Assembly (NCBI GenBank): GCA_963783375.1
Contig: CAWANH010000028.1
Span: 1,248,001-1,312,000 of the forward strand
Length of the DNA: 64,000 nt
From: Candidatus Eiseniibacteriota bacterium
GTDB taxonomy: Bacteria > Eisenbacteria > RBG-16-71-46 > JABDJR01
Direction of reading: 5' to 3'
Shown: piece by piece, positions 1 through 37,536 of the stretch
How positions within the stretch are numbered: position 1 is the first letter of the stretch
Layout: the number at the start of each line of letters is the position of its first letter
The notes under the pieces: generated by a model
Seen by the model: the letters and a program-made list of their open reading frames with translations, nothing else
The model's database searches: none
Told to the model about the DNA's origin: nothing
Position numbers and translations under genes: made by a program

Positions 1-1103
1 TGGCCCAGGCGCCTTCCGCGACGCAATACAATCAGGCGGACGCCGCGGGAGGCTCGACGGGTAACAACTCCGCCGAGCTTCCCAAGGCGCTTCAGGGGCT
101 CAAGATCAAGGGCACCGTGTTCATCGCCTACGCGGCGCAGAAGAGCGGCGGGAAGACCAGCAACCAGTTCGAGCTCAAGCGAGGCTACCTGGACGTCCAG
201 AAGACCCTCACCCCGTATCTCTCGGGACGCTACACCACCGACATCACCCAGCTCGGCTCCGGCGACTGGGAGACCCGGGTCAAGTACCTCTACGCCAAGT
301 TCACCTTCGAGGGGAACTCCTTCATCACCCAGCCCAACGTCGAGTTCGGCCAGGGACACGCTCCGTACCACGACTTCTGGGAGGCCATCAACGGCTACCG
401 GCTCCAGGGGACCATGTTCCTGGAGCGGAGCGGGGTCTTCACCAGCGCGGATCGCGGGGTGGTCTTCGGCTCGAACCTGGGTGGGGAGATGGACGCGACC
501 TACAAGAAGGAGGTGAACGGCCACTACGCCGGGCGCCGCGGGTCGCTTCAGATCGGGGTCTACAACGGCGGCGGCTACCACGCCAAGGAGATGAACGAGA
601 ACAAGGTCGTCCAGGGCCGGGTCACCGTGCGGCCGGTTCCCGACCAGGTCCCCGGGCTCCAGGTCTCGGTGGTGGGGATGGACGGGAAGTCCAACGTGGC
701 TCCGGGTGCCTCGGGCACGCTCCCGGACTGGCGGGGGGCCGACGTGATGCTCTCCTACCAGAGCCGCCGGGTCACCGCCACCGCCGAGGGCTACGCGGGG
801 ACGGGGAACCAGAGCGGCTCCGCGACATTCAACGGGCGCTCCCTGGATCAGAACGGATACTCGGTCTTCGCCTCGGTCCGGATCCCGGAGTACGAGGCAT
901 GGGGAGTCATGGGACGCTACGACCACTTCGACAACAACATCCACACCGGCACCAACGATGAGCCGGACCGGTTCATCGGCGGGGTGTCCTACGCCATGGC
1001 TTCCGGGAACATGTGGCTGGTGGATTTCGAGCACGTGAAGCACAGCGTGAGCGGGATGTCCGACGAGAACCGGGGCGAGCTGGCCCTGCAGCTCAGCTAT
1101 TGA
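1..1103 (+). CDS. Outer-membrane beta-barrel porin-like protein (5'-partial)
   Basis: Frame is open from the window start (AQAPSATQ...). Alternating amphipathic strands, RYDHFD-type strand and C-terminal aromatic residue (LQLSY). Confidence 0.7.
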   Translation, partial: AQAPSATQYNQADAAGGSTGNNSAELPKALQGLKIKGTVFIAYAAQKSGGKTSNQFELKRGYLDVQKTLTPYLSGRYTTDITQLGSGDWETRVKYLYAKFTFEGNSFITQPNVEFGQGHAPYHDFWEAINGYRLQGTMFLERSGVFTSADRGVVFGSNLGGEMDATYKKEVNGHYAGRRGSLQIGVYNGGGYHAKEMNENKVVQGRVTVRPVPDQVPGLQVSVVGMDGKSNVAPGASGTLPDWRGADVMLSYQSRRVTATAEGYAGTGNQSGSATFNGRSLDQNGYSVFASVRIPEYEAWGVMGRYDHFDNNIHTGTNDEPDRFIGGVSYAMASGNMWLVDFEHVKHSVSGMSDENRGELALQLSY

Positions 1104-1144
1104 TCATCATCGCCCCGGATCTCGCCATCATGGCGAGTGCGATG

Positions 1145-1177
1145 AGGCCCCTCCCGAAGGGAGGGGCCTTTTCCTTT
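1145..1177 (+). terminator. Intrinsic terminator
   Basis: AGGCCCCTCCC-GAA-GGGAGGGGCCT perfect stem followed by TTTCCTTT. Confidence 0.85.
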
Positions 1178-1224
1178 CCTTTGACACCGAGGGGAGCCGG
1201 CGGGACCGGGAACGACCGGAGGCC

Positions 1225-2136
1225 CTACCTCTCCTCGTCGCTCCACTCCGCATTCCCGGGATCCATGGCGTGGAACTCGCAGAGGATTTCCCATGCCTCG
1301 CGCGCGGTTTCGGCGTAGCGGATGAGCTTCAGGTCGTCGGGATTGATGGTGCCTTCCTCCACGAAGTACTCCCAGTGGACCGCGTTCTCCCAGAACTCCC
1401 GCCCGAACAGCACCACCGGCACCGGCTGGATGGTTCGGGTCTGGAGGAGAGTCAGGGTTTCGAAGAGCTCGTCCATGGTGCCGAAGCCGCCGGGGAAGGC
1501 CACCAGCCCCTTGGCCCGCATGAGGAAGTGCATCTTCCGAAGCGCGAAGTAGTGGAACTTGAAGCAGAGCTCGGGGGTGATGTAGGAGTTGGGGACCTGC
1601 TCGTGGGGAAGGGTGATGTTGAGGCCGATGCTCTTGGCCCCGGCCTCGAAGGCACCCCGGTTGGCCGCCTCCATGATCCCGGGACCGCCGCCGGTAACCA
1701 CCACGAACTCCCGCCGCCCCACCCGCTGCTGGGAGCCGGAGATGATCCGGGCCAGCTCCCGCGCCTCGTCGTAGTAGCGGGTCTTGGCCAGCACCCGCTC
1801 GGCGATCCGTAGGCGTTGTGCCGCCTCCGGGTCGTCGGGGTTCTCGCGGAGCGCGGCCCGGAATTCCTCCACCCGCGCCTCCGCCTTCGGCCGCTCCAGG
1901 ACCCGTGTCCCGCCGAAGATCACGATGGTGGAGTTGATGTGGTGCTCCCGAAAGGCGAGATCCGGTTTCAACAGTTCCAGCTCGAGCCGGGCCGGCCGTA
2001 GCTCGTCCCGCTTCAGGAGCGCCGGGTCCTCCTCGGCCAGGACGTAGCTCGGCGAGCGGAGGATGGCCTGGAGGTTCTCCTCCGGGGAGCGCGCCTTCTG
2101 GGCTTCCTGGGTTTCCCGGTCGTGATTCGCTTTCAT
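1225..2136 (-). CDS. LOG family (TIGR00730-type) nucleotide phosphoribohydrolase
   Basis: TGGGPGIMEAANRGA, FHYFALRKMHF and PGGFGTMDE motifs. Confidence 0.9.
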   Translation of the reverse strand: MKANHDRETQEAQKARSPEENLQAILRSPSYVLAEEDPALLKRDELRPARLELELLKPDLAFREHHINSTIVIFGGTRVLERPKAEARVEEFRAALRENPDDPEAAQRLRIAERVLAKTRYYDEARELARIISGSQQRVGRREFVVVTGGGPGIMEAANRGAFEAGAKSIGLNITLPHEQVPNSYITPELCFKFHYFALRKMHFLMRAKGLVAFPGGFGTMDELFETLTLLQTRTIQPVPVVLFGREFWENAVHWEYFVEEGTINPDDLKLIRYAETAREAWEILCEFHAMDPGNAEWSDEER

Positions 2137-2524
2137 GAGTCCCTCCGAGGCCTCGGTGGACGGGCGGGAGCGCCCGGTAACCCGCCGCCGGCGGAGACCG
2201 TCACGGCTTTCCCAGCATCGACCCCAGCGCCTCCCAGGTAAAGGGCGGACGGGGCCGGGGCGAGGGCCACCAAGCGGCCGTCGGGGGAATAGGCGGGGGC
2301 GTAGGTCCGGGGGCCCTCCGAGGCCAGCCGGATCCGGCGCCGTCGGGAAGGGGCATGGCGTAGAGCCGCCCCAGGGCGGCGAACACCAGCCGTTCTCCGC
2401 CGGGAGACTGGTTCGGCCGGGACAGCATCCGCACCCGGATCGAATCCGGGGCCGGGTTCTGGGGGAAGCGAAGCGCGCGGGTCACGCTCTCTTCGACCTC
2501 GGTGATGAAGGGAATGTCGCGCAC
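2133..2524 (-). pseudogene. Frameshifted fragment of a TolB/PD40 beta-propeller protein
   Basis: One frame reads ...PNQSPGGERLVFAALGRLYAMPLPDG, then after a shift near 2340 another reads RIRLASEGPRTYAPAYSPDGRLVA. Its stop overlaps the LOG start (ATGA). Confidence 0.55.
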
Positions 2525-2639
2525 CGCCCCCCAGGCCGGCCAGGAGGGCGGCGATACGGGTCCCGGGGGATTTGGTTAGGATGATGGACATGATGAGATC
2601 CTCTGCGCGAGACGAGCGTCCGGTGGCGGGACCGGGAGG

Positions 2640-3476
2640 GTGAGCACCGGCGGAGTCTACACGGCGAACACGGCCGAAACCAGGGTCGCGCGGGCGGGGG
2701 TTGGGGGGGCGCCGGAGGCCCTCCGGACGACGCCCACGCCGGGCATTTCCGTGATCGTTCCCGCCCTGGACGAGGAGGCGGCGATCGCCGCCGCGGTCGC
2801 GTCCGCCCGGGAGCAGGAGCCGGCCCCGCTCGAGGTCCTGGTGGTGGACGGCGGCTCCGTCGATCGCACCCGGGAACGCGCGCGGGCGGCGGGGGCGAAC
2901 GTCCTGGCCTCGCCCCGGGGGCGCGGGCGCCAGCTCCATGCCGGCGCGCTCGCCGCCCGAGGCTCCGTCCTCTTCTTCCTCCACGCCGACACCCGGCTCC
3001 CGGCGGGAGCGCTTGCCGCGGTGATGCGCGCCCTGAAGGCGGACGAGGTGGTGGGTGGCCGGCTCCGCCTCGCCTTCGATCGCCGCCACCCGGTGCTCGA
3101 TGCGATCGCCTATCTGTCGCGTCTCGGCTGGGGGGCGGCCGCCTACGGCGATGCCGGCTTCTTCGTCCGGGCCGGAATGTACCGGCGTATCGGGGGGTTC
3201 GAGCCGCTTCCGATCCTGGAGGACGTCCGGTTCTACCGGCGGCTCATGGGCGCAGGTCGAACGGTGGTGGCGCGCCCCGCCGCGGTGACCTCGGCGCGGC
3301 GCTTCCTCCGCCGCGGACCCTTCCGCCAGCTCGCGCTCGACTGCGCCATTCTCCTGGCCCATCGGGCGGGGGTGGACCCGGAACGGCTTGCCCGTATCTA
3401 CCGTCCGGACAACGGTCTGTCCGATCGGGGCGCCTCTGATTTGGCTTTAGTTGAAAATCCTCCCGATCATGTATGA
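2640..3476 (+). CDS. Glycosyltransferase family 2 (TIGR04283-like)
   Basis: ISVIVPALDEE, VVDGGS, FLHADT, ILEDV and TSARRF motifs. Confidence 0.85.
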   Translation: MSTGGVYTANTAETRVARAGVGGAPEALRTTPTPGISVIVPALDEEAAIAAAVASAREQEPAPLEVLVVDGGSVDRTRERARAAGANVLASPRGRGRQLHAGALAARGSVLFFLHADTRLPAGALAAVMRALKADEVVGGRLRLAFDRRHPVLDAIAYLSRLGWGAAAYGDAGFFVRAGMYRRIGGFEPLPILEDVRFYRRLMGAGRTVVARPAAVTSARRFLRRGPFRQLALDCAILLAHRAGVDPERLARIYRPDNGLSDRGASDLALVENPPDHV

Positions 3477-3606
3477 TTCAGGGGCTTGGTTCCGGGCACG
3501 AGGTGCGCGGCCGGGCAGGGTGGGCTCCGATTGCATCCCGGGATCGCCCAGGCGGCAACCGCGCCCGATTATTTGCGGCGCATGGGCCGCAGTGGAGTGG
3601 TTGAGC

Positions 3607-3894
3607 ATGGCCAAAAAGATCTATGTGGGGAACCTTCCCTTCAGCGCGACCGAGGAAGACATCCGCGAGCTGTTCGAGGCCCACGGCACCGTCCACTCGG
3701 TGAACATCATCACCGACCGGGACACCGGCCGCCCCCGCGGATTCGGTTTCATCGAGATGGACGATGCCGACGCCGCGTCCGCCATCGGCGCCCTCGACGG
3801 GGTGAGCATGGGCGGACGGAACCTCCAGGTGAACGAGGCAAAGCCCCGCACGGAATCCCCCGGAGGACGCGGCGGCCCCCGACGGCGTCACTGA
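3607..3894 (+). CDS. RRM RNA-binding protein
   Basis: RNP2 IYVGNL, RNP1 RGFGFIEM and a Gly/Arg tail. Confidence 0.95.
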   Translation: MAKKIYVGNLPFSATEEDIRELFEAHGTVHSVNIITDRDTGRPRGFGFIEMDDADAASAIGALDGVSMGGRNLQVNEAKPRTESPGGRGGPRRRH

Positions 3895-34731: not shown

Positions 34732-36042
34732 ATGCTCAAGAACTACATCCTCGACACCAACGTGCTGCTCCACGACCCGGGATCCCTGGTCTCGTTCCAG
34801 GACAACACGGTCATCGTCCCGATCTACGTGATCGAGGAGGTCGATCACTTCAAGAAGGAGGCCTCGGAGCTGGGGCGGAACGCCCGCGAGGTCTCGCGCA
34901 TCCTCGACCGGTATCGCGCGGAGGGGAACCTCGCCCAGGGAGTGGATCTCCCCACCGGCGGCCGCCTTCGGGTGGTGATCGATCACGATTACCCGCTCGA
35001 GGCGATGAACGGAAGCCCATCCAAGGTGGACCACGCGCTTCTCTCCCTGGCGCTCAAGATCCGGGGGGAACGGGAGGGGGAGCTGCCGGTGATCCTGGTG
35101 ACCAAGGACACCAACCTCCGGATCAAGGCGGACGCTCTCGGCATCAAGGCCGAGGACTACGAGACCGGCCGGGTGGACCTGAACGAGCTTTATCGCGGTG
35201 CGGTGGACCTGACCCTGTCGCGCGAACAGGTGGAGGCGCTCCGCGCGGGGGAAACCCTGCCCGCGCCTCCCGGGGACTTCTACCCCAACGAGTACGCCTT
35301 GGCCCTCTCCGGCGGCGAGCCGGTGGTCTCGGCCCTGGCCCGCATCTCGGCCGACCTCGCCGGGCTCCAGCCGCTACACCTCCCCGACCGGCCGGTCCTG
35401 GGGCTGAAGCCCAAGAACAAGGAGCAGCACTTCGCTCTGGACGCGCTGCTGGACCCCGAGGTGAAGCTGGTGACCCTGATGGGAAAGGCGGGAACGGGGA
35501 AGACCATCCTGGCCATCGCCGCCGGACTCCAGCAGGTGGAGGAGCAGGGGACCTACGCGAGGCTCCTGGTATCGCGGCCGATCTTCCCCATGGGACGCGA
35601 CATCGGCTATCTCCCCGGCGAGGTCGAGGAGAAACTCAACCCCTGGATGCAACCGATCTACGACAACCTCGAGTTCATCCTCGAACGCCAGCGGGGGCGC
35701 AAGGGGTTCACGATCGGGAAGCTCCTGGCCGGCGGCACCATCGGCATCGAACCCATCACCTACATACGGGGAAGGAGCATTCCCGGGCAGTTCCTGATCG
35801 TGGACGAGGCGCAGAACCTCACCCCGCTCGAGGTGAAGACCATCATCACCCGCGTGGGCGAGGGGACGAAGATCGTGCTCACCGGCGATCCCTACCAGAT
35901 CGACAACCCTTACGTGGACGCCTCCTCCAACGGATTCAACTACCTGGTGCAGAAGTTCCGCCCCGAAGCCCTGGCCGCACACGTGGAGCTGGTCAAGGGG
36001 GAACGAAGCCTGCTCGCGGAACGCGCGTCGGACCTTCTCTGA
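34732..36042 (+). CDS. PhoH2-type PIN-PhoH ATPase
   Basis: PIN domain (LDTNVLLHDP, VTKDTNLRIKA); GKAGTGKT, RGRS, DEAQN and GDPYQID. Confidence 0.93.
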   Translation: MLKNYILDTNVLLHDPGSLVSFQDNTVIVPIYVIEEVDHFKKEASELGRNAREVSRILDRYRAEGNLAQGVDLPTGGRLRVVIDHDYPLEAMNGSPSKVDHALLSLALKIRGEREGELPVILVTKDTNLRIKADALGIKAEDYETGRVDLNELYRGAVDLTLSREQVEALRAGETLPAPPGDFYPNEYALALSGGEPVVSALARISADLAGLQPLHLPDRPVLGLKPKNKEQHFALDALLDPEVKLVTLMGKAGTGKTILAIAAGLQQVEEQGTYARLLVSRPIFPMGRDIGYLPGEVEEKLNPWMQPIYDNLEFILERQRGRKGFTIGKLLAGGTIGIEPITYIRGRSIPGQFLIVDEAQNLTPLEVKTIITRVGEGTKIVLTGDPYQIDNPYVDASSNGFNYLVQKFRPEALAAHVELVKGERSLLAERASDLL

Positions 36043-36273: not shown

Positions 36274-36427
36274 TTCTCAACAGACCCCCCGGCGGTTTCG
36301 CAAATTTTCCGCCGGCCTCCGAACCGACAAGCGCGCATGATGTTGGCTACCATGGGTAGGCGCGCGGCGAAAACCGGGAGGCGGGTTTCTCCACGACCCT
36401 TCCACACTTTCCACAGCCTTATGCACA
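36274..36427 (+). promoter_or_regulatory. Cluster of co-oriented DnaA-box-like 9-mers
   Basis: TTCTCAACA 36274, TTCTCCACG 36387, CCTTCCACA 36398, CTTTCCACA 36407, TTATGCACA 36419, against consensus TTWTNCACA. Confidence 0.6.
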
Positions 36428-36572: not shown

Positions 36573-36601
36573 TTGACCTGGCTCCGGACCCGCGTTACCT
36601 T
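36573..36601 (+). promoter_or_regulatory. Sigma70-like promoter for the putative ncRNA
   Basis: TTGACC-17-TACCTT; predicted start near 36608. Confidence 0.55.
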
Positions 36602-36607
36602 GGGTTC

Positions 36608-37536
36608 GAGGGTCGTGATCGACCTGTCCGGCACCGACACCCGGCTTTGCCGGGACAAGGTGCAAGAACCCCAGGAGGGGCGGCGATCTCTGCGGAGAAA
36701 GCCAAGGACCTCCGCGGTGAAGACTCCGAAGGGTGCGCCGAGGCAGGCGGCTTGTCCGCCGACCGGAGCGAAGCCCATGGGAGGAGGCGCTCGTGAAGAG
36801 CGAGGCCGCCGCGGGGGGAGATGAACCCCTGGAGGGGAAGAAGCCCAAGGGAGGCACGAGCCGTCACGGCGCTTCGGCGCCGGCACGGCCACGGACTTCC
36901 ACGGAGACCAAACCCCGGAAGGCGGGCGAGGACACTGCTGAATCGAGCGCAGCAGGTCCGCTTGAGCCAACGTCAGGCGGGGAGGACCGAACCGAGAGGT
37001 CCGGACCATGCCGTGGAAGGGGAACCCTTCGAAGGGCGGAATCCCAGGAGCGTACCGGTCTGAAACACGGTCGGAAGGTTGCGGGAGGAACAAGGCGTCA
37101 GGAGGGTGCGAAACCCTGGAGACGCAGCGTACCCGGGCGAGGTAAACCCGGGGAAGTCGCTTCCCGCCTCCGGAAACGCTGTAGGGAGACAAACCCTGGT
37201 GAGGCGTGTGTCGCCGAGAGGCGGTGCGCGGCCCGGTTCGGTCAAACTCCGAAGGAGAGCGGAAGTCCAGGAGAGGCTCGCGACAACTTTCTCACGATGA
37301 CCGTCGCGACGGCGGGCACCGGAAGGCCTTCGGCGGGGCGTTAAAGCGACCCAGGTCCGAAGGAAGCGCGGAACCGATGACCGCGCTACGGATGCCCGAG
37401 GCAACCTCTGAAGGATGCGTAACTCCACGGGAGGAGGCGTTGTCGGGGTGACCCGGCTTCGCAGTCGATCCGGCGAGAAGTCTCAGAAGGGGAAACGGAC
37501 AGGCGGCGGCCCTCGTTTTTCTTGTAGCCAGCCCTC
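36608..37536 (+). ncRNA. Putative large (~930 nt) modular structured ncRNA
   Basis: No credible ORF. End-to-end pairing, more than 15 helices, GNRA/UUCG/T-loop caps, G-U-rich stems favouring the + strand, and a repeated internal module. Confidence 0.7.

Follow-up and report, generated by a model that had tools for sequence, protein, structure and literature searches.

The window analysed here, the whole stretch of 64,000 nucleotides from the genome of a Candidatus Eiseniibacteriota bacterium, carries on its forward strand a large noncoding RNA gene of about 915 nt (36607..37522), the ends of which were inferred from a promoter, a closing helix and a U-tract. Its neighbours are a PIN-PhoH gene upstream (phoH2, 34738..36042, forward strand, start codon inferred; Pfam PF13638 and PF02562) and a sugar epimerase gene in the opposite orientation; the window holds no tRNA genes. 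A sigma-70-like promoter, TTGACC-17 nt-TACCTT (36573..36601, forward strand), was recognized from its sequence, and its -35 element TTGAC is found in 9 of 10 Eisenbacteria homologs; a scan for strict consensus promoters and terminators found nothing and missed it. Homolog alignments have revealed that 36607-37522 is a conserved block, in which conservation begins right after the promoter and stops at the U-tract past 37515. The 5' and 3' ends of the RNA pair with each other in a closing helix, P1, with its 5' strand at 36607..36630 (forward strand) and its partner at 37496-37515, followed by the U-tract, and the fold of the region is more stable than that of shuffled sequences (z = -4.1). The gene is stand-alone, has its own promoter and is present as a single copy in the source genome. 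Open reading frames overlap the RNA, but a coding role was rejected on the basis of frame-breaking indels in the four closest homologs (6/6, 15/16, 15/15 and 28/30). Rfam yielded no match at the gathering score in the window or in 12 homolog loci, and the four matches obtained at E values up to 10 were unrelated chance hits.

The RNA is built from one repeated unit consisting of AA, a 4-bp helix, a 3x3 internal loop (5'-GRA/5'-ANG) and a 4-5-bp helix, with the consensus 5'-AA-NNNC-[A N G]-RGRG paired with 5'-CYCY-[G R A]-GNNN. The sequence-only reading of this region had quoted six repeat strings, each of which is present where that reading placed it, and the repeats far exceed what dinucleotide shuffles produce: weight matrices trained solely on 19 Planctomycetota homologs match 19 half-sites in 36607-37522, whereas 500 shuffles average 1.4 matches and never exceed 6, and the other 137 tiles of the window contain at most 3 on both strands. 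The copy number is ten rather than six, with two copies degenerate in the source genome. At each of the two outer positions of the loop, 93% of the cells (of 870 and 872, respectively) hold an A.A or G.G pair, and the two pairs swap together, the middle position being free; G.G reaches 17% in the loop pairs as compared with an expected 4%. In eight of the ten copies, most sequences place the AA precisely 4 nt ahead of the loop, and such fixed spacing between the AA and a purine-rich loop is expected of a docking or binding unit. A fixed distortion of the helix would follow from the two like-with-like purine pairs. One study reports that A.A and G.G pairs of the tWH family are not isosteric (PMC2673412). 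A literature search of titles and abstract openings returned nothing naming the 3x3 loop.

Two known motifs were compared with the unit at the level of sequence and pairing, and it fits neither. It shares with the kink-turn and the box C/D motif a purine-rich internal loop between short helices and CUGA-like and AUGA-like strings. The loop is symmetric (3x3), however, and the position of the would-be tandem G.A is a covarying pair, U-A in 549 and C-G in 165 of 770 copies; tandem GA/GA is possible in just 294 of the 770. A sponge of the CsrB/Rsm type, with CsrA-type GGA sites, is disfavoured, as GAA is more frequent than GGA (338 against 189 of 784 loop strands) and GGA lies in internal loops rather than hairpin loops.

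The halves of the units pair at long range, forming four arms round one central junction. Covariation was analysed in 79 sequences below 90% identity (mean identity 55% among 88 aligned); of the 30 column pairs that covary most strongly, 27 are canonical, the background rate being 4.7%. When each of nine GRA strands was set against each of nine ANG strands, the partners came out one to one: eight of the true pairings have 14-51 compensatory double changes each, counted on single tree branches, whereas none of the remaining 72 combinations exceeds 6. The ninth partner (copy 6) is nearly invariant in the 79-sequence set, a circular result in that it served as the search pattern. In 19 held-out RNAs, the nine partners are 0.83-1.00 paired as compared with 0.61-0.81 for the local hairpins, and the tenth, weaker copy is 0.79 paired. 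Helix sequences drift freely between homologs with pairing retained. In energy, the fold derived from covariation improves on the local hairpins by 25 kcal/mol and lies 7.4 kcal/mol above the unconstrained minimum.

These results alter how the repeats are to be understood. The strings at 36824-54, 37023-52, 37244-76 and 37403-34 had been read as local hairpins; their halves are not partners: paired locally they have 0, 0, 5 and 1 compensatory double changes, whereas pairing at long range gives 14-51. What was taken for a hairpin is the corner between adjacent helices, made of the 3' strand of one, a linker ending in A and the 5' strand of the next, and the 'loop ending AAN' is this junction linker. 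For 37244-76 and 37403-34 in particular, 24 sequences give 68.7% paired cells as local hairpins (485 of 500 shuffles as high) and 97.9% when pairing is crossed over the arm 37244-37436 (0 of 500 as high). The nested unit with an insert at 36722-84 was correctly recognized, and 37092-125 is a true hairpin, although its loop strands come in the reverse order. The broader proposal of a large RNA made from a repeated structural unit stands, but not as a string of sponge-like local hairpins, since the unit is not local.

The layout consists of the closing helix, a variable 5' domain and the four arms, each opened by a unit in the same polarity, with six further copies within the arms; all features given here lie on the forward strand. 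Arm I (36669..36837) is opened by copy 1 (ANG 36673/GRA 36831), with 14 compensatory changes and 146 of 150 held-out cells paired, and copy 2 (36724..36783; GRA 36728/ANG 36777), with a variable insert inside, shows 39 such changes. Arm II (36844..37036) is opened by copy 3 (ANG 36847/GRA 37031; 14 changes), and copy 4 (36914..36981; GRA 36918/ANG 36975; 26 changes) had no counterpart in the earlier reading. Arm III (37042..37187), opened by copy 5 (ANG 37046/GRA 37181; 14 changes), is recovered unaided by RNAalifold; it contains a hairpin with a UGAAA loop (37055-74), a helix (37078-87/37161-70), a second hairpin (37132-51) and copy 6, a local hairpin with a GNGAA cap (37095..37125; ANG 37100, GRA 37118) in which 151 of 152 held-out cells are paired. 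Arm IV (37194..37492) is opened by copy 7, whose strand at 37197 is a degenerate UGG here and pairs with GRA 37486 (23 changes). Copies 8 and 9 stand face to face at 37247..37433, with 32 compensatory changes for GRA 37251/ANG 37427 and 51 for ANG 37269/GRA 37410. Copy 10 (37328..37363) is degenerate in the source genome, and the family columns show its G.G and A.A/G.G loop pairs. The unit As and the loop purines make up most of the conserved unpaired bases, and there is no long conserved single strand. Homolog conservation also marks a single-copy hairpin (37365..37389) with the conserved loop AACCRAUR followed by UAC; this element (37371-37389) sits in a three-way junction, no pairing partner was found for it, and it is the best candidate for a functional site. 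Covariation detected no tertiary contacts; in particular, the conserved loops 37138-45 and 37372-79, examined as a possible kissing pair, do not covary.

Sequences from RNA runs cover the locus. About 0.3 of the sampled words are present in 24 RNA runs. In four metatranscriptomes, contigs near-identical to the locus (about 97%) span roughly 36657-37506 at depths of 20-3679, as against depths of 0-8 for the flanking genes and 0 for the flanking spacers; these four runs had been selected because they contain this stretch, they are RNA runs alone, and contig depth is a poor measure that cannot rank genes. Independent transcription is observed for close relatives, from contigs only, and the RNA appears to be very abundant. 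Among the matches listed, 65 of 79 metagenome loci are whole contigs of 1.0-1.3 kb made of the RNA alone, and in 64 of these 65 the end lies no further than 80 nt from the last unit. Transcript assemblies would yield such whole-RNA contigs stopping near the last unit.

Two contigs contain head-to-tail repeats of the RNA (L090:400-430 and 1236-1266; L129:800-835) with periods of 836 and 830. At their junctions, nothing but ACCA or ACCC separates the 3' strand of the closing helix from its 5' strand. The last junction base differs between the two junctions of one contig. Circular RNA, a ligation artefact or non-templated CCA addition would each account for these junctions. A tRNA-like CCA end after P1 occurs in some homologs and was rejected here, being absent from the window and from the other genomic Eisenbacteria copies.

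Upstream of the promoter lies a cluster of DnaA-box-like 9-mers (36274..36427, forward strand; boxes at 36274, 36387, 36407 and 36419 and an extra core at 36399), matched to the DnaA-box consensus. Such 9-mers are enriched upstream of 31 genomic copies of the RNA from several phyla, with 83 found as compared with 12.3 in shuffles, counting up to two mismatches, with RNA starts judged by eye and with related copies not independent; 25 of the 31 carry two or more. The cluster in the window ties as the densest of 41 in the genome, and the region upstream of mraZ has a similar one. The 9-mers could alternatively be MraZ-type repeats.

Relatives of the RNA occur in at least five bacterial phyla, the close ones in Candidatus Eisenbacteria. 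Pattern scans gave 14 true loci of 24 matches in genomes and at least 118 supported of at least 120 loci in metagenomes, the 10 and 2 rows without profile support being dropped together with two weak blastn matches in coding DNA (G039 and G048) and a chimeric contig (L111); 626-nt fragments (L130-L170) were left out of the alignment. A covariance model built from arm III and run on phylum samples of often incomplete genomes was positive in 8 of 151 Eisenbacteria, 19 of 151 Planctomycetota (the phylum of L037), 29 of 151 Myxococcota (the phylum of L022; up to 6 matches per genome, a few of them weak) and 1 of 151 Acidobacteriota genomes (the phylum of L036), and in 1 of 14 genomes from the phylum of L040. 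The exact pattern badly undercounts the family, with 1 true match in 201 Myxococcota genomes against 29 of 151 by the model. Viral contigs gave no exact-pattern match, and phages and plasmids no blastn match, in searches that reach close relatives only; the RNA is chromosomal and not phage-borne. Its length ranges from about 0.8 to 1.9 kb across homologs through insertions, and no neighbour gene common to its loci across phyla was found. A mobile element was rejected, as paralogs are mostly divergent, no transposase or reverse transcriptase is a regular neighbour and one IS66 match was found in 89 ORFs. In one genome (G004; L010:1500-1580), the promoter and both ends of the RNA are retained but about 830 nt between the ends are gone; unless this deletion is an assembly error, the RNA can probably be dispensed with. 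The family is apparently unlisted: it is absent from Rfam, and no description was found in a literature search outside of which most subscription papers fall.

Several known RNA classes were considered. A stand-in for RNase P RNA, SRP RNA or tmRNA was rejected because the source genome encodes all three elsewhere, and a resemblance to SRP helix 8 at 37352-71 belongs to the degenerate copy 10 in a genome with its own SRP RNA. Replacement of 6S RNA was rejected because the fold is not a rod; no 6S RNA was found in the genome, although the same model found it in only 5 of 14 control genomes. A riboswitch resembling the glycine aptamer was rejected because downstream genes and their orientation vary and Rfam gave no match.

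By being long, covarying, non-coding and independently transcribed (in close relatives, from contigs only), the RNA falls within the loose kind of large ornate bacterial noncoding RNAs. Large structured bacterial RNAs are few, and the solved ones are ribozymes, core machines or cages. GOLLD and ROOL have been described as bacterial RNAs of unknown function that stand alone, covary strongly and measure from 650 to over 800 nt, ROOL being abundant and dispensable (PMC12286853). The present RNA is likewise large, covarying, stand-alone and bacterial. In contrast to it, GOLLD and ROOL have covarying kissing loops and occur in phages and prophages, often near tRNA islands; the present RNA is chromosomal, belongs to other phyla, is built from one motif in ten copies and has no Rfam match. 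OLE and raiA motif RNAs resemble it in being abundant, independently transcribed, patchily distributed and rich in conserved unpaired bases, but it differs from them in size, phyla and layout, in having no Rfam match and in having no conserved protein partner gene.

Conservation falls on As, loop purines and the lengths of helices and not on any guide or neighbouring gene, which makes a structural role the simplest reading. The explanation that we favour, and to which we give about an even chance, is that the ten units pack the arms through RNA-RNA contacts into a compact, stable scaffold particle, by analogy with the ornate GOLLD and ROOL. The ten units, pairing at long range, would set four arms round one junction, and the AA four pairs from each loop would dock into the groove of a neighbouring arm, in the manner of the A-minor contacts reported to build the GOLLD and ROOL cages without protein (PMC12286853). 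The gene may have grown by tandem duplication of the corner 'GRA strand - linker - AA - ANG strand', and its transcription could be tied to the replication cycle through DnaA. The one-to-one partners, the held-out support, the loop-pair rule, the AA spacing, the conserved As and loop purines, the variation of length by insertions, the lack of a neighbour gene shared across phyla, the coverage in RNA runs and the contigs that stop near the last unit argue for packing; against it stand the absence of any covarying tertiary contact, the chromosomal rather than phage-borne setting of the RNA, the limits of contig depth in the four selected runs, the reported non-isostericity of A.A and G.G in the tWH family and the fact that ten copies of one surface would fit protein binding equally well. 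The fullest version, a widespread, very abundant, pseudo-symmetric RNA machine made of one undescribed brick used ten times, forming a protein-free particle and transcribed under DnaA control as part of the cell cycle in several uncultured phyla, is doubtful. The architecture of the family is testable, as there is one motif in ten copies and the partner of each is known; a new recurring 3D motif would serve RNA structure prediction and design, and an RNA built from repeats, if true, would be comparable to repeat proteins.

Protein binding is the main alternative, possible but less likely: each unit would bind the same protein, and the RNA would act as a ten-valent scaffold or sink in which purine pairs open the major groove. 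Purine pairs open the major groove in this way in the Rev response element of HIV, where A.A and G.G are interchangeable at the Rev site. The same joint interchange in the unit, the ten copies of one composite site with a fixed AA spacing and the apparent high abundance of the RNA all suit this reading, but no gene is co-located with the RNA across phyla, helix sequences vary freely as long as pairing is kept, and most units lie at arm bases within junctions, where access may be limited.

It is unlikely that the RNA is a partner of PhoH2, a PIN nuclease and ring helicase, as an RNA antitoxin, substrate or guide. The gene lies just upstream of the RNA in the window, in eight other Eisenbacteria and at three further loci (L036, L040 and L100), and within Eisenbacteria both are found in the same four families. 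PhoH2 proteins encoded beside the RNA group into a single clade, with members from two other phyla (SH-aLRT 90, in a quick tree with long branches and all 57 rows kept). Mycobacterial PhoH2 has been reported to bind and unwind RNA (PMC7390352), and a preprint has described other RNAs beside phoH2 (bioRxiv 10.64898/2026.10.21.760802). However, a single origin of the adjacency accounts for the link. Planctomycetota genomes with the RNA yielded phoH2 in 6 of 19 cases and those without it in 6 of 20, always on a different contig, and the gene is found in none of 48 stretches round Myxococcota or Planctomycetota copies. Among phoH2 loci, 16 of 17 in Acidobacteriota and all 12 from the Bacteroidota group have no copy of the RNA within 1.5 kb; one genome (G005) has phoH2 without the RNA, and G004 has kept phoH2 with the middle of the RNA deleted. 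The gene is linked to the RNA in one clade only, a caution that an association with phoH2, as has lately been suggested for RNAs of this sort, can be an accident of a single clade. As a separate observation, the PhoH2 proteins of six RNA-positive Planctomycetota genomes (L242, L245-L247, L249 and L251), unlinked to the RNA, form one branch (SH-aLRT 94), which may simply reflect kinship.

The RNAs of that preprint resemble the present one as unannotated, highly transcribed multistem RNAs beside a PIN-PhoH gene, and a PIN_4 plus PhoH neighbour is true of this locus and its clade, not of the family at large. Compared by text, the lead motif of the preprint differs in being 357 nt long and in belonging to a Bacteroidota-enriched subtree, and the available text mentions no repeated loop (bioRxiv 10.64898/2026.10.21.760802). 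Twelve Bacteroidota-group phoH2 loci showed no similarity to the RNA or its units, and these loci may not carry the RNA of the preprint. The preprint lists 13 clusters 3' of phoH2 plus cluster 1,412,455, and the present RNA may be among the 13 (Fig. S14C of the preprint).

Strand swapping, in which interchangeable half-units would exchange strands so that arms form between molecules and give rings or lattices, is decidedly unlikely. The half-units are near-equivalent, with non-partner combinations up to 0.90 paired, and covariation is blind to pairing in cis or in trans; yet each half has one specific partner across the family, and the all-cis fold lies just 7.4 kcal/mol above the unconstrained minimum. 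A ribozyme, such as a group II relative with AACCRAUR/UAC as its active site, is very improbable: size, a wheel-like layout, a conserved single-copy core, the two contigs in which the 3' end is joined to the 5' end and the report that most solved large bacterial RNAs are ribozymes (PMC10861870) would favour it, but Rfam gave no group II match, a loose domain V pattern was found in just 3 of 98 RNAs, and no reverse transcriptase or transposase is a regular neighbour.

Further observations concern single members of the family. Myxococcota paralogs of about 1.35 and 1.85 kb (G417, L293, and G308, L301) have a sigma-54-like promoter; G417 also carries two near-identical copies of the RNA 3.6 kb apart, and another genome (G277; L288-L292 and L302) has six divergent matches on six contigs beside unrelated genes. 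A PTS EIIA gene follows the RNA in one Planctomycetota-type clade (L037, L067, L218, L219 and L221), and an amidase lies upstream of it in L067 and L114. Just 3' of the RNA, four loci (L228, L230, L231 and L232; in L231 the start only) share a second short conserved element starting CAGCCCTCACTGTCCGAC, for which Rfam gave no match in L231. In one genome (G014; L012:2185-2260), the RNA is directly followed by a terminator region of T-box-like appearance and tyrS.
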